Shown here one piece after another: positions 1-6,394 of a DNA stretch of 28,815 bases. The stretch is from the IMG/VR virus record IMGVR_UViG_3300017971_000238; one strand, given 5' to 3'. Under the pieces are notes generated by a model. It had not been told where the DNA came from. It saw only the letters and a list, made by a program, of their open reading frames with translations, and did not search any database. Each line of letters starts with the position of its first letter. Position 1 is the first letter of the stretch. Both the position numbers and the translations under genes were made by a program. This stretch comes from an uncultured virus (IMG/VR IMGVR_UViG_3300017971_000238) (taxonomy: Duplodnaviria > Heunggongvirae > Uroviricota > Caudoviricetes).

Positions 1-113
1 TCTTCGATGAGGAGGACGAGGTCCTGTTGGGCGCGGTAGATGCCGGGCAGTTCCTCGTTATCTAGGAGGGCGGAGAATTCCTCGGCGGCGATTTTCGCCA
101 ATTGGTTTTTCAT
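1..113 (-). CDS. Hypothetical protein, 5' part only (runs off the window)
   Basis: Not in the ORF track. ATG at 113 lies 6 nt after box B (120-130) and reads MKNQLAKIAAEEFSALLDNEELPGIYRAQQDLVLLIE with no stop before position 1. Confidence 0.75.
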   Translation of the reverse strand, partial: MKNQLAKIAAEEFSALLDNEELPGIYRAQQDLVLLIE

Positions 114-119
114 GGTGTG

Positions 120-247
120 CTCAACTCGTGCGGGATGCCAGAGTGGATGCATTACGGGGACGCACGACGGCTTTGCGGGGACACGTTGCCTTACCATGCA
201 CGGACCCGTCTTTCCCGTGCATTCACTCTGGTATTTTCACCCGTGAA
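120..247 (-). promoter_or_regulatory. Intergenic cassette element U1 (box B, 105-nt hairpin insert, box A)
   Basis: CTCAACTCGTG at 120-130 and TTCACCCGTGAA at 236-247. A 17-bp stem pairs 135-151 with 218-234 (ATGCCAGAGTGGATGCA/TGCATTCACTCTGGTAT), with inner stems. Confidence 0.8.
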
Positions 248-265
248 TTAGAGAAGGGAAAAAGA

Positions 266-826
266 TTAAAGATGGAGGGAATGCGCCTCGAGGAGGGCGA
301 TTATGTATCGGGTGGTGATGCCCTCGCGGATGCGCTTGATTATGTGGGCGACTTCCTCCTCGGGAAACATGTTGTCGAGCTCGTCGAAGGCGCTGTCGAG
401 AAGTTCTTTCTCGTGGTCTACATAGCAGGTGTTCCCGTGAATAGGGCGGGAGCACTGCGGGCAGCGGTTGATGCGCTCGATGAGATGGCACGAGGGGCAG
501 TAGAGAACCTCGCCGCCTTGAATGTGTACGGGAGTGAGGGGGGAATGGGCGCATGATGCGCACTTGAGGGCGACGGGCTTCGTGTATCGAACGCCCTCTT
601 GAAGGCGAGAAATGTCCTTGGGAGACATTTCTACCTTGTCTCCCGGTTCCACGTCCCAGAAGAGGCGGTCCCGTTGTATTTTCTTGGAGCGATGGCCCGT
701 TGATTTCTTGGGAGTGGTGGTACGTGTCGGCTTGGCGGTCTCCTCGACGAGGCGCAGGAGGTAGGCGATTTTTTGCTCGTCGTCGGTGAAGGTGGCGAGC
801 TTGTCGGATATTTGTTTCCTGTTCAT
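266..826 (-). CDS. Zn-finger protein (186 aa; CASC, CPSC, CPQC, CxxxH)
   Basis: Start re-called to ATG 826, 4 nt after box B (831-841). The ORF-track extension to 1171 overlaps the next gene. Three CxxC motifs plus C-x3-H. Confidence 0.8.
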   Translation of the reverse strand: MNRKQISDKLATFTDDEQKIAYLLRLVEETAKPTRTTTPKKSTGHRSKKIQRDRLFWDVEPGDKVEMSPKDISRLQEGVRYTKPVALKCASCAHSPLTPVHIQGGEVLYCPSCHLIERINRCPQCSRPIHGNTCYVDHEKELLDSAFDELDNMFPEEEVAHIIKRIREGITTRYIIALLEAHSLHL

Positions 827-830
827 GGTA

Positions 831-866
831 CTCAACTCGTGGTGAGGTGGTGCTTTCACCCGTGAA
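831..866 (-). promoter_or_regulatory. Intergenic cassette element U2
   Basis: CTCAACTCGTG 831-841; hairpin GGTGAGG-TGGTGC-TTTCACC; TTCACCCGTGAA 855-866; purine tract (U-tract on the mRNA) 867-890. Confidence 0.8.
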
Positions 867-891
867 TTAAAATGGAAAAATAAAGAGGGAT

Positions 892-1746
892 TTAGTTTTC
901 GACGAGGAACTTGAAGGCGTCGTGCTGTTCCTCGTAGGCGTCTTTCTTTCGCTGGCGACTTTCTTTCGTGGAAGAGGTTCGGTGCAAGAGATGGAGGCCC
1001 GTCTCGTTGAGGACATTCCACTTGTCGCCCAACTGGAGGGCGATGCCTCGGTAGAGGAGGTATTGGGTGCAGTAGTGCAGGATTTTCCAGAGGTCGACGG
1101 GTTCCCGGGGTTGCTTGTCCGCATCCTTGTCGTTGTTGTACTTCTTGAGGTCGGTGTTGTACTCGGCCCACTTTTTCTGGGCCGCCTTCACGGCATCGAA
1201 TGCCTCGAGTGGCCCGAGCTTTTTGTAGAGGGCCTTGATAGCGGCCTCGCGGTTGGACTTGATGGTGAGGTCCTCGTTGAGGGCGTCTAGCTCGAAGATG
1301 GGAGGCGTGGGCATCGAATCAACGGAGCGCATCCCGCTCGGGTCGTACTCGGAATAGACCCACTTGGTTATCATGGCCTCGGTGATGATTTCCGCTTCGA
1401 TGGCTTCCACTGCCCACATGATCTGTGAAAATTTGGGCACTAGGAAGTCAAAGAACGAACCGTCGTTCATTATGAGCTCGGATGCGATGGCGAGGGACAG
1501 TTTTTGCATGTCCCCGGTGTTGTAGGCCTCGATAGCAGCGCTGAGGCGGTCGGCTTGGTCTAGCTGGATGATTTTCTTACCCCAAGTGCGCCCGCTGTAG
1601 AGCTCGGCGGGTGATAGGTTGTACGTTTCACCAGCGACGGTGATGGACGAGACGAAATAACTGAGGGCGGCGAGTAGCTCTTCCTTGTTGATGGTGCGGT
1701 CCTCGCTCATTATAGAGGAGGTGAATGTTTCTTGATAGGTGTCCAT
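892..1746 (-). CDS. Hypothetical protein (284 aa, predicted mostly helical)
   Basis: Long ORF with ATG 6 nt after box B (1753-1763). No family recognised. Confidence 0.85.
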   Translation of the reverse strand: MDTYQETFTSSIMSEDRTINKEELLAALSYFVSSITVAGETYNLSPAELYSGRTWGKKIIQLDQADRLSAAIEAYNTGDMQKLSLAIASELIMNDGSFFDFLVPKFSQIMWAVEAIEAEIITEAMITKWVYSEYDPSGMRSVDSMPTPPIFELDALNEDLTIKSNREAAIKALYKKLGPLEAFDAVKAAQKKWAEYNTDLKKYNNDKDADKQPREPVDLWKILHYCTQYLLYRGIALQLGDKWNVLNETGLHLLHRTSSTKESRQRKKDAYEEQHDAFKFLVEN

Positions 1747-1752
1747 TTTTAA

Positions 1753-1796
1753 CTCAACTCGTGTGCGGTGGGTTAGACCGCGATTTCACCCGTGTA
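1753..1796 (-). promoter_or_regulatory. Intergenic cassette element U3
   Basis: CTCAACTCGTG 1753-1763; GCGGT/ACCGC hairpin; TTCACCCGTGTA 1785-1796; purine/A tract 1801-1821. Confidence 0.8.
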
Positions 1797-1836
1797 TACG
1801 AAATGGAGGGGAGAAAAAAAATTACTTGAAAATAAA

Positions 1837-2100
1837 TCACGGGACGCGTTTTCCGGCAATTCGGGATGGGGAGACAGTGATCCCGGTAAGCAACCAGCGC
1901 TGGATGGTCTCGCCGGCTGCGTTACAGGTTTTCACCTCGCAGTGGAGGTGGCCGCCGATCCAGCAATCTGGATCGACGTAGATCACGATCGAGGGATACT
2001 CGCACGATCCCAACCCCTCGATCTCAAGTATTACGTCGTAATACTCGAGTGTGGCGTGTTGGACGTGCAAATCGTCCAACTGTTCCAAAGGTGTGTTCAT
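1837..2100 (-). CDS. Hypothetical protein (87 aa)
   Basis: ATG 6 nt after box B (2107-2117); fits the cassette pattern. Confidence 0.75.
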   Translation of the reverse strand: MNTPLEQLDDLHVQHATLEYYDVILEIEGLGSCEYPSIVIYVDPDCWIGGHLHCEVKTCNAAGETIQRWLLTGITVSPSRIAGKRVP

Positions 2101-2106
2101 GTTTTT

Positions 2107-2211
2107 CTCAACTCGTGATGGTGGTGCCCGTTTTTAACGACCCGGTGCATGGTCGTCTCCCTCCCGTCCTAAATGGGCGGGAGATGGGAGAAAAAGGGAA
2201 AAAGGGGAGAA
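2107..2211 (-). promoter_or_regulatory. Intergenic cassette element U4 (box A degenerate)
   Basis: CTCAACTCGTG 2107-2117. Only a CCCGT core of box A remains, inside the hairpin CTCCCGTCC-TAAAT-GGGCGGGAG (2161-2183). A long purine tract runs to 2211. Confidence 0.65.
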
Positions 2212-2454
2212 TTATAATTCCTCGCCGCATTCAGGGCAACAGGCGGCGTCCCCGTGAGCTTCCTTGAACAGCTCGCGGATATGGAACAGGGCGTCGCAGT
2301 GTGGACAGAATGCGTGGGCTTCTGCGATTTCATCGTAGGGCTGGATGATGAAGTCGCAGTATCGGCAGTACGTGTATAGCGGGTCTTCTATGCAGACCCG
2401 TGCAACCCGGGTGGGGGTGCGCCCGCACCCGAAACATTTTTTTGGCTCCTGCAT
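2212..2454 (-). CDS. Small multi-Zn-finger protein (80 aa, four CxxC)
   Basis: MQEPKKCFGC...CRYC...CPHC...CPEC; ATG 2454 lies 7 nt after box B (2462-2472). Confidence 0.8.
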   Translation of the reverse strand: MQEPKKCFGCGRTPTRVARVCIEDPLYTYCRYCDFIIQPYDEIAEAHAFCPHCDALFHIRELFKEAHGDAACCPECGEEL

Positions 2455-2461
2455 GGTTGGT

Positions 2462-2698
2462 CTCAACTCGTGGTGGTGGGGCCCGACAAATTAGAATTGA
2501 TTCAATAATATCTCCCAAAACAGCTTAATTATAAGCTGGGTACAGGGATTTTATTGAATCGTTTCGGAGGGGACCCGATAAGAGGTGCAGTGCCCAAGAA
2601 AACGCCATTTTATCTGGTAGCTCACCACGTGGTGAGGAGGATAAACGGGGATGGTAGTGGGCACTTAAGCCAGACTCGTTCTGGACTTCACCCGTGCA
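2462..2698 (-). promoter_or_regulatory. Intergenic cassette element U5 with a 214-nt multi-stem insert (ncRNA candidate)
   Basis: Box B 2462-2472 and box A TTCACCCGTGCA 2687-2698. Stems at 2499-2508/2551-2560, 2521-2527/2532-2538 and 2589-2596/2658-2665, plus a 16-bp palindrome at 2621-2636. Confidence 0.75.
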
Positions 2699-2700
2699 TT

Positions 2701-2713
2701 AAAAGAAAAAAAA
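2701..2713 (-). terminator. Archaeal-type oligo-U terminator (representative; similar tracts follow the other left-arm genes)
   Basis: TTTTTTTTCTTTT on the - strand directly after the stop at 2714. Similar pyrimidine tracts at about 250-265, 867-890, 1801-1821, 2186-2211 and 2891-2902. Confidence 0.6.
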
Positions 2714-2851
2714 TTAAATGTAGTGGTTGAGGAGCATCTGTACTATCTCCTCACGGGATAAATGGGGTAAATCTATCGAAAGCGAATCAACAAGCTCCTC
2801 TGGATTACACTGGAGCGCCGATTCTAGCGCTATGTAATCAACTGGTTTCAT
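2714..2851 (-). CDS. Small hypothetical protein (45 aa)
   Basis: Below the ORF-track cut-off. Reads MKPVDYIALESALQCNPEELVDSLSIDLPHLSREEIVQMLLNHYI; preceded by a box B variant (2857-2865) and followed by a U-tract. Confidence 0.7.
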   Translation of the reverse strand: MKPVDYIALESALQCNPEELVDSLSIDLPHLSREEIVQMLLNHYI

Positions 2852-2856
2852 TTTTA

Positions 2857-2888
2857 TCAACTCGTTCTAGGTGAAATTCACCCGTGAA
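2857..2888 (-). promoter_or_regulatory. Intergenic cassette element U6
   Basis: TCAACTCGT 2857-2865; hairpin GGTGA-AAT-TCACC; box A 2877-2888 extended to the perfect AATTCAC-CC-GTGAATT. Confidence 0.8.
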
Positions 2889-2905
2889 TTAAAAGAAAGA
2901 AATTT

Positions 2906-2922
2906 TAGATAGACTGTGTGGC
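2906..2922 (-). repeat. Inverted copy of the GCCACACAGYCTATCTA motif
   Basis: Reverse complement GCCACACAGTCTATCTA matches 4005-4021 at 16/17 positions. Confidence 0.7.
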
Positions 2923-2925
2923 AGC

Positions 2926-3078
2926 CTAGAGATCCAATTGTTGAAACCTTTCGGAGATTAAAGCTTTCAACATGGAACATTCTAGCTTGTCCCATGAGTT
3001 ATCGCGTTGTTGGTGAAATTCAAATTCACCAACAAGAGATATAATATCATCTATCAAGATTTCGATTTCTCTAACCAT
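2926..3078 (-). CDS. Small hypothetical protein (50 aa)
   Basis: MVREIEILIDDIISLVGEFEF...; start re-called to ATG 3078 with RBS AGGTGA (3089-3084). Confidence 0.65.
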   Translation of the reverse strand: MVREIEILIDDIISLVGEFEFHQQRDNSWDKLECSMLKALISERFQQLDL

Positions 3079-3088
3079 GTGATTCACC

Positions 3089-3346
3089 TTAAGGTGTGAA
3101 ATGCGTGAAATGCTTGTCTTGGGAGATTTTTTCGATGCGTGGATAATCATTCCACGCATATGCGGTAATGCGGTATTCAGTTGCTTTTGTTTTGCGGCTG
3201 GAGCGCTTTCTGCGCTCAAGATACTCAAAAATATCACCACTGATGCCCGCTTTTGCGGGCACCTTGATGATACCGCCCGAAACGGGCGTCGCTTTATGTC
3301 GGGTAACAATTTTACCCGAATCTAACTCGAAAACTTGTTTAGGCAT
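3089..3346 (-). CDS. Basic hypothetical protein (85 aa); doubtful, overlaps five strong hairpins
   Basis: ATG with GGGTGA upstream and a stop abutting the next RBS. However, the span is packed with perfect inverted repeats and may instead be a structured non-coding insert. Confidence 0.4.
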   Translation of the reverse strand: MPKQVFELDSGKIVTRHKATPVSGGIIKVPAKAGISGDIFEYLERRKRSSRKTKATEYRITAYAWNDYPRIEKISQDKHFTHFTP

Positions 3347-3360
3347 GATGATTCACCCGT

Positions 3361-3845
3361 AGATGAGGAGAAAGCCCGTGATAGTTATTACTTCTCACGG
3401 GCGCACGTTTTTTTTCACGGGTAAAGGAGGATTTGAACCTCCGCGTGATATGCGCGGTAATGCATATCGGGTGCGTAGAAAACGTGCAAACTACAAACGA
3501 GTGAGTTTGTAGCCTTTACATTACTCTTCCCGTGCCCCGTGCTCACCCGCCCGACATTTCGCTCTTCTCCTAGGCAGGACTACAGCCTAGGCAGGGCGTT
3601 GAGTCTCATCTCTATCCTCTTCAATTGCAACTACTACTGTTTTAGACCGCGACACTGCTCCGCCAAGGCTGATAGTAAGCAGGCATGCTTAGCTAGGTGG
3701 CGATCGGTATGCTTTCGCTGCACTAATCACAAGGACGCACGAGGCAACTGCTTAACGCAACTAGCGCTAACGGGCGCACTTTCTACGGGAGTGCGGCACG
3801 CTAACGCCTAGTACGAGCAATTGAGATACGCACAAGACAAGAGGA
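3361..3845. ncRNA. Candidate large structured non-coding element containing a tRNA-like T-arm
   Basis: Stems at 3374-3381/3395-3402, 3403-3411/3479-3487, 3426-3430/3438-3442, 3447-3453/3462-3468, 3491-3498/3505-3512, 3361-3367/3605-3611, 3621-3628/3817-3824 and 3775-3795. No credible ORF. Confidence 0.5.
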
Positions 3846-3928
3846 CTTGATTTTGTGTCCCAATTACTAAATAAAGTATAGTCTTTCTTGAATTTAAGAA
3901 TTGTGAATGCGAACCTCAGAATTTTGCA

Positions 3929-4021
3929 GCCACACAGCCTGTGGATGCATTCTATGAATCGACACTGTTTCTCAAAATTAATTTTTTAATTTTCAAATTC
4001 TCAAGCCACACAGCCTATCTA
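3929..4021 (+). repeat. Direct repeat GCCACACAGCCT (3929-3940, 4005-4016) around an AT-rich stretch
   Basis: Exact 12-bp direct repeat upstream of the terS promoter; a third, inverted copy is at 2906-2922. Confidence 0.7.
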
Positions 4022-4140
4022 TGCAAAAGAATGCTTTTTTAGAAAGCAACGAGGTTAGTTCCCCATCCACCACCGCGCTATCCAAATACATTCGGGCTAA
4101 TCTGGAGGTCCAGTCCCCCACGGGACACCACCACGAGAAT

Positions 4141-4152
4141 AACATTTATATA
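4141..4152 (+). promoter_or_regulatory. Putative archaeal promoter (TATA box) of the packaging/morphogenesis operon
   Basis: AACA-TTTATATA, preceded by purine-rich GAGAAT, about 35-40 nt upstream of ATG 4185. The same AACATTTATA recurs at 10102-10111. Confidence 0.65.
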
Positions 4153-4184
4153 CGCTGGTTCCCACCATCTCCTTGAAAATCGCC

Positions 4185-4694
4185 ATGTCCAAGTCCAAAC
4201 CGCTCCGCATCCACGTGCCCGAGGCGCCCGCCCTCGCTCCCGCCACCGCCCGAAAGGCGCTTGCAGAGATTCGTGCGGAACCTCTCCACCAATCTGTCAA
4301 TCCTGATGACCCGCGCCAGAAACAGATCACGGTGCATCCCGTTCTCATCGACGTGGTCACCAACGCGCCCATCGACACGCTTCAGGAAGCCCAGCAAATC
4401 TACGCGGTCACGAAAAACGTCGCCATGGACATGCTCGCCGAATCCCACAAAAAAGGCAAGACCGACCCGCAACTTCTTGGCTGGGTGAAAGAAACTCGTG
4501 AACAACTCAAGCTCATCCACTCGATGACTTCCGGCTTCCAGCAGAAAGTATCCCTCAAGAAAATCGAACTCATGGCAACGTTCATCAATTCGAGCTCCGA
4601 CCTTCGTGACGAGTTCAAGATACAAATGATAAAAGAGCTCGAACAGGTGGAGGCGGCACGCGAATTACCACAACCAATGGAGATTGAAGAATGA
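4185..4694 (+). CDS. terS: Putative terminase small subunit (169 aa)
   Basis: Directly upstream of terL and overlapping it (ATGA); size and helical character fit. No diagnostic motif. Confidence 0.55.
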   Translation: MSKSKPLRIHVPEAPALAPATARKALAEIRAEPLHQSVNPDDPRQKQITVHPVLIDVVTNAPIDTLQEAQQIYAVTKNVAMDMLAESHKKGKTDPQLLGWVKETREQLKLIHSMTSGFQQKVSLKKIELMATFINSSSDLRDEFKIQMIKELEQVEAARELPQPMEIEE

Positions 4695-6394
4695 GCATAT
4701 CTGCACAATATGGCGACTCCTCCTTCCTCCTCGACCAGCTCTCATCGCTTGGTATCGATCCAGAAGACAATCCCGCCGAATTCCGGCGTTTCCAACTGGC
4801 TTCTATTTCTTGGGTCCATTTCGCCGAGTATTTCTTCAAGAACCCGCTCGACGAGGACCAACCCCTTCGTCTGGATCCACCCCAGAAAGCCGCCATAAAT
4901 GCAGTCCAATTTGGCTACGACATCGACATGTATCCATGGACAATCCCCGACCACAAGCGCCCGAAAGAAATCGTGATGATATGGCCCCGCCAGTTCGGCA
5001 AGACCACTGCCGTGGCTGTCGCTGCCGCCTGCGCCTTCATCTTCATGGTAAAACGCTTCAACATCGCCACCTTCTCCGTTAACGAGGACGGCGCCAAGGA
5101 ACTCATGGAGCGCATCAAGTACTTCATCGAAACCTCGCCATTCGGCTACATGATCGAGGACTCCAACACGACGATGATTCGCAAGATCGGCAAGAAAGTC
5201 AAATGCACCGCCTATCCCGCTTCCGACGGTGTTCGTGGCCGTTCCATCCAACTCGGCCTCATCGACGAGGCAGCGCACATCAAGGAGAAAATTCTCATGG
5301 GCGCGATCCTCTACACCCTCCGCCGTGTTGGCGTTCGCTGGATCATGCTCTCGACCCCCCTCGGGTACAAGGGATCATTTGTCGACCACTTCCAGATAGC
5401 CATGAGAACACGCCCGCTCGTCTGCCTCGACTGCGGATCACTCGTATCGCAAACCGACGACATCATGAATGCATTCACGCACAAGTTCGACAGGTACTAC
5501 ATCCCGCAAGGCCTTCCACCATGTCCAACGTGCCAATCTCTTTCTTGGGAATATGGCGTGGGCGAGTACTGCGTCATACCCGTCGACCCGTTCAAGTGCT
5601 CGTGGAAAACAAAAGAACAAATCCTTCACGAGCTCGATCTCGCTGGAAACACGCCTCTCGCCCGTCAAGAGATGCTTGGCGAGATAATCATGGAAGGCTC
5701 GAACGTGTTCTCACGCCAGATGCTCGAACGTGCAATCAACGATAAACTCGACAATCGCATCAACCCGGTGTACGAGATTCGCAATTACGTGGTTGGCATG
5801 GACTTTGGCAAGGTCCACGATGCTTCCGTATCCGCCGTGATGCATTACGACTGGGATCGCAAGACATCCATTCTCGACCATCTATACGTCATACCGGCCC
5901 GCTACCAGAACATCGACTACAAGGACATCCGCGACGCATTTTTAAATGTCGTGGAAAGATACGATCCCATCTGGATATGCCCGGATGCTACTGGTGTGGG
6001 CGATTCCGTCACGGATGACATGTGGCTGGACCTTAGAGAAAGAAAGCTGCGGGCACGCATCTACTCCAACAAGAACAAGCAACAGTCCTACTTCTCGTCG
6101 GAAAAGATAAAACACAAGGGATTCGTGTTCGACATCAAGTCCAAGATGGAACTCATCAATAACCTCGTGGAGGGATTCACGACGAGGCAAGACATAGAAA
6201 TACCACCGAGACACGTTCCGGTAATAGACCAGTTATGGGACGAGCTTCTCCAGTTCTCGTACACGGTCACCGAAAGTAAAAACATAAAATACGGCACCCA
6301 GAATGCCCACGATGATTGCGTGATAGCACTTGCCCTCGCGTACTGGGTAGCCAGACAAAAACCGTTCATTCCATTATCATCAAGGTGTGCATGA
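4691..6394 (+). CDS. terL: Terminase large subunit with a Zn-ribbon insertion
   Basis: Walker A WPRQFGKTT, Walker B LGLIDEAAH, coupling motif STP, and RNase H-like nuclease motifs VGMDFG, PDATGVG and HDDCVIALAL. Confidence 0.95.
   Translation: MSISAQYGDSSFLLDQLSSLGIDPEDNPAEFRRFQLASISWVHFAEYFFKNPLDEDQPLRLDPPQKAAINAVQFGYDIDMYPWTIPDHKRPKEIVMIWPRQFGKTTAVAVAAACAFIFMVKRFNIATFSVNEDGAKELMERIKYFIETSPFGYMIEDSNTTMIRKIGKKVKCTAYPASDGVRGRSIQLGLIDEAAHIKEKILMGAILYTLRRVGVRWIMLSTPLGYKGSFVDHFQIAMRTRPLVCLDCGSLVSQTDDIMNAFTHKFDRYYIPQGLPPCPTCQSLSWEYGVGEYCVIPVDPFKCSWKTKEQILHELDLAGNTPLARQEMLGEIIMEGSNVFSRQMLERAINDKLDNRINPVYEIRNYVVGMDFGKVHDASVSAVMHYDWDRKTSILDHLYVIPARYQNIDYKDIRDAFLNVVERYDPIWICPDATGVGDSVTDDMWLDLRERKLRARIYSNKNKQQSYFSSEKIKHKGFVFDIKSKMELINNLVEGFTTRQDIEIPPRHVPVIDQLWDELLQFSYTVTESKNIKYGTQNAHDDCVIALALAYWVARQKPFIPLSSRCA

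Follow-up and report, generated by a model that had tools for sequence, protein, structure and literature searches.

Repeated boxes in the spacers of a minus-strand gene array

At one end of a 28,815-nt stretch of DNA from an uncultured archaeal tailed virus (the window), small minus-strand genes are separated by spacers that repeat one layout, which raises the question of whether these spacers are expression signals, recombination sites or both. The window shows about one-third of a roughly 90-kb genome. It begins within the array, cutting the first gene (g1) at base 3, and public contigs extend at least 14 kb further left. The nearest relative (L037/L047, TerL 83% identical) lies in a Thermoplasmata MAG and carries 11 units of the same architecture in different letters.

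Each spacer runs from stop codon through T-run, TATA-like box, box A, insert and box B to the ATG, in an order that is constant relative to the stop and start codons (Table 1). Box A (CACGGGTGAA) occurs in five exact copies on the minus strand. Box B (CACGAGTTGAG) also occurs in five exact copies, and a sixth (AACGAGTTGAT, in U6) has two mismatches. Exact copies of either box are confined to the intergenic spacers of the array, between 114 and 2925. By our own arithmetic over 2 x 28.8 kb, chance would supply about 0.05 copies of an exact 10-mer and 0.01 of an exact 11-mer. When one mismatch was allowed, box A had eight matches in the window against 1.99 expected, six of them on the minus strand within 236-3361.

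The exact repeats and constant order bear out the shared architecture that the initial annotation had proposed for the six spacers. Its insert lengths of 105, 13, 21 and 214 nt were reproduced from the coordinates, its 11 nt for U6 becomes 10 or 11 nt depending on where box B is taken to start, and the ATG does lie 4-7 nt 3' of box B in all six units. The description of box A as a palindrome (TTCAC-GG-GTGAA) holds for three of the five exact copies (U1, U2 and U6) and fails for U3 and U5, which read ATACAC and ATGCAC, respectively. The seventh box A variant reported at 3352 exists, with one mismatch, and is placed as an ordinary Shine-Dalgarno sequence 5 nt before the g8 ATG; a further GGTGAA, 4 nt 5' of the g7 ATG, likewise has an ordinary Shine-Dalgarno position.

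Table 1. Features of the array, positions 3-3421 of the window.
Feature	Position	Strand	Description
g1	3..113	-	Cargo ORF cut by window start, 37 aa visible; no Pfam match
Spacer U1	114..265	-	T5 run directly 3' of g2 stop; fold z -2.1
U1 elements		-	TATA-like TCTAATT 246-252; box A 236-245; insert 131-235 (105 nt); box B 120-130
g2	266..826	-	186-aa Zn-ribbon ORFan; Zn-ribbon matches weak, below cut-off
Spacer U2	827..891	-	T5 run; TTTTAATT 865-872; box A 855-864; insert 842-854 (13 nt); box B 831-841
g3	892..1746	-	284-aa ORFan
Spacer U3	1747..1836	-	T8 run; TCGTATA 1795-1801; box A 1785-1794; insert 1764-1784 (21 nt); box B 1753-1763
g4	1837..2100	-	87-aa ORFan; no homologue in relative
Spacer U4	2101..2211	-	Two T5 runs; degenerate box A ACGGGAGGG ~2159-2167; box B 2107-2117
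g5	2212..2454	-	80-aa double Zn-ribbon ORFan; no homologue in relative
Spacer U5	2455..2713	-	T8 run; TTTTAATG 2697-2704; box A 2687-2696; box B 2462-2472
Structured noncoding element in U5	2473-2686	-	214 nt; fold z -5.8
g6	2714..2851	-	45-aa ORFan
Spacer U6	2852..2925	-	T4 only; TTTTAATT 2887-2894; box A 2877-2886; box B variant 2856-2866
g7	2926..3078	-	50-aa ORFan; starts 10 nt after g8 stop
g8	3089..3346	-	85-aa first array gene; no family found
g8 leader	3347..3421	-	Box A variant TACGGGTGAA 3352-3361, Shine-Dalgarno position; TATA-like GTAATAAC

Occurrence of the motif in the virus and its nearest relative

A search of the 1.7-Mb MAG with the relative's motif pattern returned nine matches, eight on the viral contig and one on a 2.7-kb viral-looking contig, with none in the remainder of the MAG and no control matches. 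Because the matches are confined to these two viral-looking contigs, the motif is viral and does not belong to the host. A sequence model of the 17 units (R1) recovered 16 of its own training units. It gave no further matches when run over the remainder of the window, 22 loci of more distant TerL relatives and two stretches of the haloarchaeal virus HGTV-1.

Hairpins, T-runs and Shine-Dalgarno-like boxes

Hairpins of 4-8 bp form in every one of the relative's 11 units, where no more than 0.013 of 300 shuffled sequences folded equally well, and in four of the six window units. GGGTG, the 5' arm of the hairpin, is unvaried in 17 of 17 aligned units, while arms and loops vary from unit to unit (GGGTGG/CCACCC in one, GGGGT/ACCCC in another). 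The claim that insert stems close against the boxes was upheld for U1, U2, U5 and U6 (GGTGAA/TTCACC in U6), where GGGTG(A) forms the 5' arm, and lost for U3 and U4, whose stems are no better than shuffles. U4 has a local hairpin (CGACC/GGTCG) and an A/T-rich GTTAAAAA 14 nt 5' of box B. At its start the U1 insert has a unit of the relative's type (GGGTGAAAATACC-AGAGTGAAT) together with another, degenerate box A (ATGCACGGGAAAG), and U5 carries an additional box-B-like AACGAGTCTGG, TATA-like TCTAATTT and degenerate box A (GTCGGGCCCC).

Runs of at least five T lie 0-16 nt 3' of the stop codon in five of six window spacers and in all eight L037 spacers. The coding sequence of the array (2,583 nt) has a single run of this kind, and T-runs of the late region number 16 sense versus 48 antisense. 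Runs of T5-T8 would stop archaeal RNA polymerase, and their presence after five of six stops argues against a single long precursor RNA. At least 4 nt of GGAGGTGATC are matched upstream of 15 of 23 late genes. GAGTTGA of box B is one mismatch away from GAGGTGA, dropping one G from GGAGGTGA gives the relative's GGAGTGA, and both boxes read as one-off variants of the late-gene Shine-Dalgarno sequence. A BRE-like stretch and TTTAAATA stand 22-24 nt 5' of the ATG in the family's more distant members, which is the expected TATA-to-start geometry.

Cargo genes and cassette turnover

The cargo genes are ORFans. Gene order relative to L037 is kept by three of the eight array genes, which have syntenic homologues: g2 (L037 d, 27% identity, E 4e-16), g3 (L037 c', 28% identity, E 6e-33) and, weakly, g8 (L037 a, E 1e-4). 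The other five have no homologue there. Only one credible relative of g2 was found among 1.84 billion representatives, and the g3 family has two members. The 214-nt "insert" of U5 is a separate, conserved, strongly structured noncoding cassette; its L037 counterpart (z -5.0) lies between two complete units. The comparison covers two genomes, which are too diverged for recombination break-points to be mapped onto the modules.

A probable composite boundary between expression cassettes

On balance, these features suggest that the spacers are composite terminator, promoter, hairpin and RBS modules, which would give each ORFan its own expression signals and provide homology for cassette exchange. 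Of the readings in the initial annotation, co-regulated early genes with shared expression signals came closest to the data, but as one composite module per gene and not as the operator with RNase III-type sites that it proposed. The hairpins are 4-8 bp long, and a T-run follows five of six stops.

The oligo-T run directly after the stop would very probably end the upstream transcript in the archaeal manner. The adjacent TATA-like box would then, with somewhat better than even prospects, direct a new start about 22-24 bp downstream; the predicted start falls 7-9 nt 5' of the ATG in the relative, and in the short units of the window it falls close to where box B begins. Box B would quite probably lie in a short 5' UTR as a slightly imperfect Shine-Dalgarno sequence. 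Between the TATA-like box and the start site, GGGTG and its complementary arm would fold into a small hairpin, most likely an attenuator or insulator acting on read-through RNA from the upstream gene, as has been proposed for the stem-loops in PeSL promoters (described below); this is the least certain step. In units with the TATA-like box further upstream, the hairpin would sit at the 5' end of the mRNA instead. Since each ORFan is bordered by about 35-45 bp of near-identical sequence, whole self-expressing cassettes, including the noncoding one, could be deleted, inserted or swapped by ordinary homologous recombination. The long "inserts" of U1, U4 and U5 would represent extra or decayed units and one conserved structured noncoding cassette, and not loops within one element.

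Several observations weigh against a promoter in every module. The TATA-like boxes lack the purine-rich BRE of the relatives' clear promoters, some are poor (TTATCATG, TCGTATA), and U3 has 31 nt between TATA-like box and box B, which departs from the short-unit spacing. Five of the 17 units (g8; L037 a, h and i; L047) keep GGGTG with no adjoining TATA-like box, and the four other than g8 also keep the hairpin and box B. A structure-conserved hairpin that is never transcribed from its own promoter is hard to explain. Promoter, start site and terminator are sequence-based predictions, since no RNA run that was checked contains the array.

Alternative explanations

The strongest alternative, which we nevertheless consider unlikely, places the modules at the RNA level. 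The array would be read as long RNAs that start at the g8 promoter, with perhaps a few additional promoters, the A/U-rich stretch and hairpin would be a processing or stabilising site, and the GGGUGA hairpin with box B would control translation of each cistron. Conservation of the hairpin by structure and not by sequence, together with the Shine-Dalgarno likeness of both boxes, is consistent with this. In g8, L037 a and L037 h, the TATA-like box lies 26-28 nt 5' of GGGTG, which would put the hairpin inside the mRNA, at its 5' end, and favours an RNA-level role. L047 has a box-B-type sequence 3' of a tRNA-like element in a tightly packed operon, and box A pairs with the end of the insert in U1 and U5, over distances of 105 and 214 nt. 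Against it stand the T5-T8 runs directly after the stops, with sense T-runs otherwise avoided, the shortness of the stems, and the long element of the relative, which is flanked by two complete units and not enclosed in one. The pairing of box A with box B that had been proposed to mask the RBS is predicted in U2 and U6 but is no commoner than with shuffled upstream sequence: none of three window units reached the 0.05 level, and nine of nine relative units gave no signal.

A less probable alternative is that box A is chiefly an operator, bound by a dimeric viral or host protein at the palindrome TTCACGGGTGAA 3' of each TATA-like box to switch the whole array. Archaeal repressors usually bind between TATA box and start site, which is where box A would lie, and the palindrome is perfect in three exact copies. 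TCACGGG/CCCGTGA is also enriched (12 matches against 4.0 expected, 10 of them within 1-3421), including inverted copies around the g8 TATA-like box (3375-3381 minus, 3395-3401 plus and 3415-3421 plus), and a similar CACGGG...CCCGTG pair lies 5' of L037 unit a. The palindrome is, however, broken in U3 and U5, and none of the array proteins matched a DNA-binding family. The relative's inverted repeat spans 13-19 nt with variable loops, which is more in keeping with a hairpin than with a fixed dimer site.

Dedicated recombination sites of the integron type, folded like attC and moving the cassettes, are very improbable. The GTTRRRY noted earlier in box B of U1-U3 is indeed there, the inserts are folded and variable, and cassette content differs between the two viruses. 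Yet GTTRRRY is absent from the other three window units and from all eight units examined in the relative, and RYYYAAC occurs in one of six and none of eight, which largely refutes an attC identity. The sites also lie upstream of genes, with promoter-like and RBS-like signals. No recombinase family was matched among the 31 window proteins, and no tyrosine recombinase among the relative's 14. Contigs of four public runs contained no alternative or excision joints, which is weak evidence because contigs drop rare forms. Least credible are the hairpin promoters also suggested initially, taken as N4-type single-strand promoters read by a virion or viral RNA polymerase: a small conserved hairpin does precede every early-looking gene, but its loop and stem sizes vary, an ordinary TATA-like box is present, and no RNA polymerase-like protein was seen in the window (about one-third of the genome).

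Comparison with known systems

Composite expression-cassette boundaries, the reading preferred here, have counterparts in other viruses, and the initial statement that nothing similar exists in described archaeal viruses was wrong, as the HF2 repeats (PMC8707807) and the HGTV-1 motif (PMC3950731) illustrate. Integron attC sites resemble the array in being folded, variable-length sequences between single-gene cassettes; they differ in that the array lacks conserved core sites, places its modules upstream of genes with expression signals and has no integrase among the window and relative proteins.

In halovirus HF2, nine of nine intergenic repeats tested in reporter assays had promoter activity (Russ, Pfeiffer and Dyall-Smith 2021, PMC8707807). 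As that report describes them, they are, like the array modules, virus-specific, with A/T-rich motifs found nowhere else in the genome. Unlike the modules, they are few (seven class I, two class II) and head long transcripts instead of single genes, and hairpins are not general among them.

HGTV-1, a haloarchaeal myovirus, is described as having a motif of TATA-like sequence and inverted repeat upstream of most ORFs in one arm of its genome (Sencilo et al. 2013, via PMC3950731), and within 15.9 kb of its record a 68-nt module is present in 21 copies. Like the virus described here, it is an archaeal tailed virus in which an arm of small hypothetical genes runs on the opposite strand to the terminase module, and a conserved module containing a T-run, TATA-like box(es) and an inverted repeat stands before each gene. 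The HGTV-1 module is longer, at about 100 nt against 35-45 nt for the array module. It has two TATA-like boxes around a 9-bp inverted repeat, and a separate BRE/TATA lies about 22 nt upstream of a leaderless ATG, whereas the array module has a single TATA-like box, a hairpin of 4-8 bp and a Shine-Dalgarno-like box. The sequences are unrelated, as the R1 search of two HGTV-1 stretches indicated, and the host lineages differ (Halobacteria versus the Thermoplasmata MAG of the array's relative).

The HGTV-1 motif has itself been likened to the promoter-early stem-loops (PeSLs) of T4-type phages (PMC3950731; Arbiol et al. 2010, PMC2839356; Comeau et al. 2014, PMC4122927). A PeSL unit is described as a stop codon in an AT-rich region, a promoter with a stem-loop inside it (often GGGG...CCCC), an SD and an ATG; PeSLs flank ORFans and mediate indels and mini-circles (PMC2839356). 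From these accounts, the array shares intergenic modules that recur between the small ORFans of a hypervariable region, whole-cassette indels between related genomes, the order of elements, and a stem-loop in or next to the promoter, with GGGG...CCCC also in the relative. It differs in having an archaeal TATA-like box where PeSLs have bacterial sigma-70 promoters, in lacking sequence homology to them, and in that its hairpin arm and RBS box are near-copies of each other. Because the T-run precedes the hairpin, the latter is not a bacterial-type terminator. For PeSLs, experiments have demonstrated promoter activity, terminator activity and mini-circles, whereas the array module is described here from sequence. 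The module is best read as an archaeal analogue of the T4-type PeSLs and the HGTV-1 motif, an arrangement with precedents in T4-like phages and in one haloarchaeal virus, and not a new recombination system.

Gene layout and a close relative

The plus strand from position 4173 on holds the packaging and structural module of a tailed virus. The array, eight small minus-strand genes designated g1 to g8, is divergent from this module. The search with the large terminase (TerL) gave an 83% identical protein that bears the NCBI name 'Thermoplasmata archaeon M11B2D', and other relatives of at most 58% identity; one more TerL protein, P0002, is 85% identical. By the kinship of its terminase, the window is therefore that of an archaeal virus, and its host, assigned by MAG binning only, is probably a sediment Thermoplasmata. 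The relative compared here comprises the contig of the 83% identical terminase (L037) and the small contig L047. One TerL homologue of 928 aa (P0054) contains the intein/LAGLIDADG Pfam domains PF14528 and PF14890 and is an intein-bearing terminase. A resemblance of g8 to AbrB-like regulators found no support in Pfam or Atlas.

Features of the array, its surroundings and their counterparts in the relative
Feature	Position	Strand	Remark
g1	3-113	minus	truncated at window start
g2	266-826	minus	
g3	892-1746	minus	
g4	1837-2100	minus	
g5	2212-2454	minus	
U5 element	2473-2686	minus	214 nt; fold z -5.8
Palindrome within U5 element	2621-2636		16 bp, perfect
g6	2714-2851	minus	
g7	2926-3078	minus	
g8	3089-3346	minus	
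Array-to-small-terminase gap	3347-4172	minus	about 800 nt without convincing ORF
Three extra half-sites	3375-3421		around g8 TATA-like box
tRNA-like T-arm	3426-3442		end of gap
Direct repeat	3920-3949 and 3996-4025		30 nt, 80% identical, noncoding; family D10
Large terminase	from 4173 on	plus	PF03237, phrog_2
Portal	from 4173 on	plus	weak match
Major capsid protein	from 4173 on	plus	phrog_1005
Baseplate J	from 4173 on	plus	
L037, counterpart of U5 element	4770-4985		fold z -5.0
L037, gap equivalent	5356-6040		
L037, T-arm	5445-5463		similar to window T-arm
L047, tRNA-like region	about 925-1061		minihelix at about 1025-1061

The gap between the array and the small terminase gene ends in a tRNA-like T-arm, GGAGGTTCAAATCCTCC, and a similar T-arm lies in the equivalent gap of L037. 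On L047, an acceptor/T-arm minihelix ending in CCA is followed by a box-B-type sequence. ARAGORN and Rfam returned nothing for these tRNA-like pieces. In HF2, a tRNA-like gene has been interpreted as attP in one account (PMC8707807); the same role was rejected here, as no matching host tRNA was found in the MAG and the matches obtained were self matches only. The direct repeat upstream of the small terminase contains CCACACAGCC. The related locus L009 (TerL 54% identical; regions 5421-6296 and 517-5412) has the palindrome CTTATCCAGTATAAGC five times within 850 nt, with an iteron-like look, and the promoter-like sequence TATTTAAACTTTACGYTGGT four times, which is echoed as ATTTATATACGCTGGTT upstream of the small terminase in the window.

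A repeated module separates the array genes

The six spacers between the array genes (U1 to U6) had been described in the initial annotation as sharing one architecture, and this was confirmed. Box A (CACGGGTGAA) and box B (CACGAGTTGAG) each occur in five exact copies and one extra variant copy, all on the minus strand and all intergenic. Each spacer runs in constant order from the stop codon through a T-run, a TATA-like box, box A, an insert and box B to an ATG 4-7 nt further on. The half-site TCACGGG/CCCGTGA, three extra copies of which surround the TATA-like box of g8, has 10 of its 12 window copies within positions 1-3421, some of them intragenic, and a similar CACGGG...CCCGTG pair precedes the first unit (a) of L037. 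Two small ORFs, of 33 aa in U1 and of 17 aa in U4, were dismissed as chance frames, their start ATGCAC(G/C)GG being a degenerate TATA/box A junction.

L037 carries nine opposite-strand genes upstream of TerL, separated by spacers composed of a T6-T8 run, a TTATAAT-like box, a GGGGTG-loop-CCCC hairpin, AGGAGTGAAC, 3-6 nt and ATG. The pattern GGGGTG..CCC..GGAGTGA matched eight times on L037 and once at the start of the 2.7-kb contig L047; it had no match in the rest of the 1.7-Mb MAG, and a reversed control pattern gave 0 matches. When 17 units of the two viruses were aligned, leaving aside U4, g7 and the proximal portions of U1 and U5, GGGTG was the sole invariant block. The two boxes also resemble one another within each virus (CACGgGT-GAa and CACGaGTTGAg in the window, GGGGTGAA and GGAGTGAA in the relative). 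These results show that the architecture, not the letters, is conserved between the window and its relative.

RNAalifold returned no consensus pairs for these units because their 3' arms do not align, and the model built from them (R1) was therefore sequence-only. R1 regained 16 of its 17 units. It found no further copy in the window's other 25 kb, among 22 loci from more distant TerL relatives or in the two HGTV-1 stretches searched. This search covered 27 of 56 loci, leaving aside L001-L005 and L050-L052 (chance matches), L028-L036 (weak or duplicate) and sub-loci of G001. Neither box was present in the loci chosen through TerL, of which 26 came from metagenome contigs and 5 from viral contigs, with TerL identities no higher than 57%. 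In viral_contigs, single matches to the bipartite box A/box B pattern at five loci, none with a full box B, and to the relative-type pattern at three loci were attributed to chance.

Terminator-, promoter- and ribosome-binding-site-like parts

A run of at least five T residues begins 0-16 nt past the stop codon in five of the six window spacers (U6 has T4) and in all eight L037 spacers, while the array coding sequence has one such run in 2,583 nt. The late region has 16 T-runs on the sense strand against 48 on the antisense strand. Oligo-T is an established archaeal terminator. The TATA-like box (TTTTAATT, TTTTAATG or TCTAATT) immediately adjoins box A and is at this fixed place in 12 of the 17 aligned units, none with a BRE. 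Five units lack an adjoining box, and three of these have one 26-28 nt upstream. Clear promoters in more distant members of the family consist of a purine-rich stretch and TTTAAATA, 22-24 nt before ATG, a distance that indicates leaderless starts as far as sequence can tell. With the same spacing, the start site of U2 and U6 would fall near the CA of box B and leave a 5' UTR of 12-16 nt, and that of the relative's units would fall 7-9 nt before ATG.

Upstream of 15 of the 23 late genes, 4 nt or more match GGAGGTGATC. The GAGTTGA of box B, at its distance of 4-7 nt from ATG, is one mismatch from the late-gene Shine-Dalgarno sequence GAGGTGA, and GGAGTGA in the relative is short of one G. GAGTGA-type sequences also precede internal genes on L047, and box A itself (GGGTGA) is at the Shine-Dalgarno position of g7 and g8. 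Beyond AAGTCGTAA, the full-length 16S match of the MAG (L048, 1400-1560) no longer follows the usual 3' end, and the host anti-Shine-Dalgarno sequence is therefore unreadable there; misassembly or an intervening sequence may account for this divergence.

A hairpin with GGGTG in its 5' arm folded better than shuffled sequences in all 11 units of the relative and in four of the six window units (U1, U2, U5 and U6); the folds of U3 and U4 were not better than shuffles. The relative's hairpins total 13 to 19 nt, and their loops and arms differ. This variation is more in keeping with selection on the folded strand than on a fixed dimer-binding site.

A structured element in U5, probably a noncoding cassette

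The long inserts had been regarded as loops of a single element. This view was not borne out for the structured noncoding insert between box A and box B of U5, here the U5 element, the counterpart of which lies between two complete units in L037. The element is strongly structured in both viruses, has a long 3' hairpin and shares near-identical blocks with L037, for example GGTCCCCTCCGAAaCGATTcAATAAA; it is far better conserved than the neighbouring proteins, whose identity is only 27-28%. A TATA-like box, box A and the box-B-like AACGAGTCTGG come before it in the window; after it come the TATA-like TCTAATTT, a box A in degenerate form, and box B. Because units stand on both sides of it in L037 and in the window, the U5 element is best read as a separate noncoding cassette, with a small RNA or a protein-binding site as candidate roles. 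It had no Rfam match, and its conserved block had 0 matches in viral_contigs. A protein-coding reading was rejected by eye, as the corresponding frame of the relative contains no start codon. Each half of the perfect palindrome within the element, CTCACCACGTGGTGAG, is a copy of box B with two mismatches.

U1 starts with a relative-type unit (GGGTGAAAATACC-AGAGTGAAT), after which comes another box A in degenerate form, and U4 contains three box-A-like fragments. These extras would be tandem or decayed units, the debris typical of recombination between repeats.

Turnover of the array genes

Three array genes have homologues in the relative, with their order kept: g8 and a (E = 1e-4), g3 and c' (E = 6e-33), and g2 and d (E = 4e-16). 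No counterpart was found there for g7, g6, g5 or g4, and g1 was too short for judging; the relative in turn carries another five cassettes that do not appear in the window. The tally of 3/8 syntenic genes and 5/8 without a counterpart is between two highly diverged genomes. True ORFans make up the cargo: the family of g3 has two members, g4 is without a relative, and a search of 1.84 billion representatives gave a single credible relative of g2. The g3 and g2 proteins are 27-28% identical to their syntenic homologues, as against 83% for TerL. This contrast is indicative of very rapid divergence or of an exchange for distant alleles, and it marks the array as a fast-evolving host-interaction arm.

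Proposed function and alternatives

We lean slightly towards reading the spacers as composite cassette boundaries, in which terminator, promoter, hairpin and ribosome-binding site would be combined and the module sequence would double as homology for cassette exchange. If the adjoining TATA-like box is the promoter, the hairpin would lie between TATA and the start site and would be transcribed only by read-through from upstream. The stem-loops of PeSL (promoter-early stem-loop, a repeated module of T4-type phages) sit likewise relative to the promoter and are described in one report as attenuating upstream transcription (PMC2839356). The role of the hairpin is the weakest step of the proposed mechanism.

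Action of the modules at the RNA level is unlikely, and is retained because of the five of 17 units that lack an adjoining TATA-like box, among them the three with a box 26-28 nt upstream, in which the hairpin would fall at the mRNA 5' end. One form of it, a helix between the box A/TATA region and box B that would mask the ribosome-binding site, was predicted in U2 and U6, but shuffled versions of the upstream 25 nt paired as much; this test skipped three of the six window units (long or degenerate), L037 unit c and L047.

We consider it improbable that cassettes are exchanged in an active process directed by structure, with the modules as its substrates, as a counterpart in archaeal viruses to the traffic of integrons or PeSL mini-circles. 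Self-expressing ORFan and structured noncoding cassettes would then move between Thermoplasmata viruses, with the invariant GGGTG hairpin as recognition point and the relative-type unit in U1 as an import footprint. No RNA run was listed among the sequencing runs that contain the sequence. Assembled contigs of four runs contained no alternative joints, variants or excised circles, a weak test since rare circles would not show in contigs. The resemblance to integron attC sites did not hold up, with GTTRRRY in three of six window and none of eight relative units, and RYYYAAC in one of six and none of eight. No recombinase was found among the 31 proteins of the window and 14 of the relative, a set that covers only part of the genome of about 90 kb. 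RNase III-type processing sites, also proposed initially, are at odds with short-unit stems of 4-8 bp and with T-runs after each gene.

Comparison with known systems

T7/SPO1 RNase III sites are irregular double-stranded RNA hairpins of about 20 bp between cistrons of one early transcript, and are not matched here. The archaeal bulge-helix-bulge intron has two 3-nt bulges on opposite strands, with a 4-bp helix between them, at the insert borders; it was rejected, as the predicted structures had a one-sided bulge of 3-4 nt only and an outer helix not above controls. Integrons comprise IntI, attI and a common promoter serving promoterless cassettes, whereas each cassette here has its own promoter-like signal.

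In the HGTV-1 record, a module of about 100 nt stands before each of the small hypothetical genes in the arm opposite the terminase (128-143.8 kb). It consists of CTTTTTATA, CTCCTCGTG/CACGAGGAG as an inverted repeat, TATATAAA and finally, at about 22 nt from ATG, a promoter of the form CGAAAG-CTTAATAC. Repeat finding gave 21 copies of a 68-nt core. A TATA-like box and an inverted repeat before most ORFs of one arm are an architecture common to HGTV-1 and the present element, but there is no sequence similarity (R1 had 0 matches in the HGTV-1 stretches L053 and L054), and length and layout differ. In HGTV-1 (L054, 33000-48855), the inverted repeat has a 3' arm that resembles box B, which may be coincidence or a shared preference.

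As in PeSL, the present motif is repeated and restricted to intergenic spaces in a region rich in small ORFans. A stable stem-loop in or beside the putative promoter is present in 11 of 11 relative and four of six window units, and the 3' Shine-Dalgarno sequence and start codon and the upstream stop in an A/T-rich stretch are both present. PeSL of T4-like phages have a sigma-70 -35/-10 pair, whereas this archaeal virus has a TATA-like box and no such pair; the present element is therefore an analogue of PeSL and not a member by descent. A literature search on Thermoplasmata or MBG-D viruses listed no paper with such a motif, which does not prove its absence. The feature is real, its main interpretation is ordinary for tailed viruses, and it does not represent a new system class. 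With it, the "mobile regulatory cassette" design, known from T4-like phages and one haloarchaeal virus, reaches viruses of uncultured sediment Thermoplasmata, which suggests that tailed viruses in the two prokaryotic domains arrived convergently at one way of carrying and exchanging orphan genes. The modules also offer compact, portable candidate promoter, terminator and ribosome-binding-site elements for a host lineage without genetic tools.
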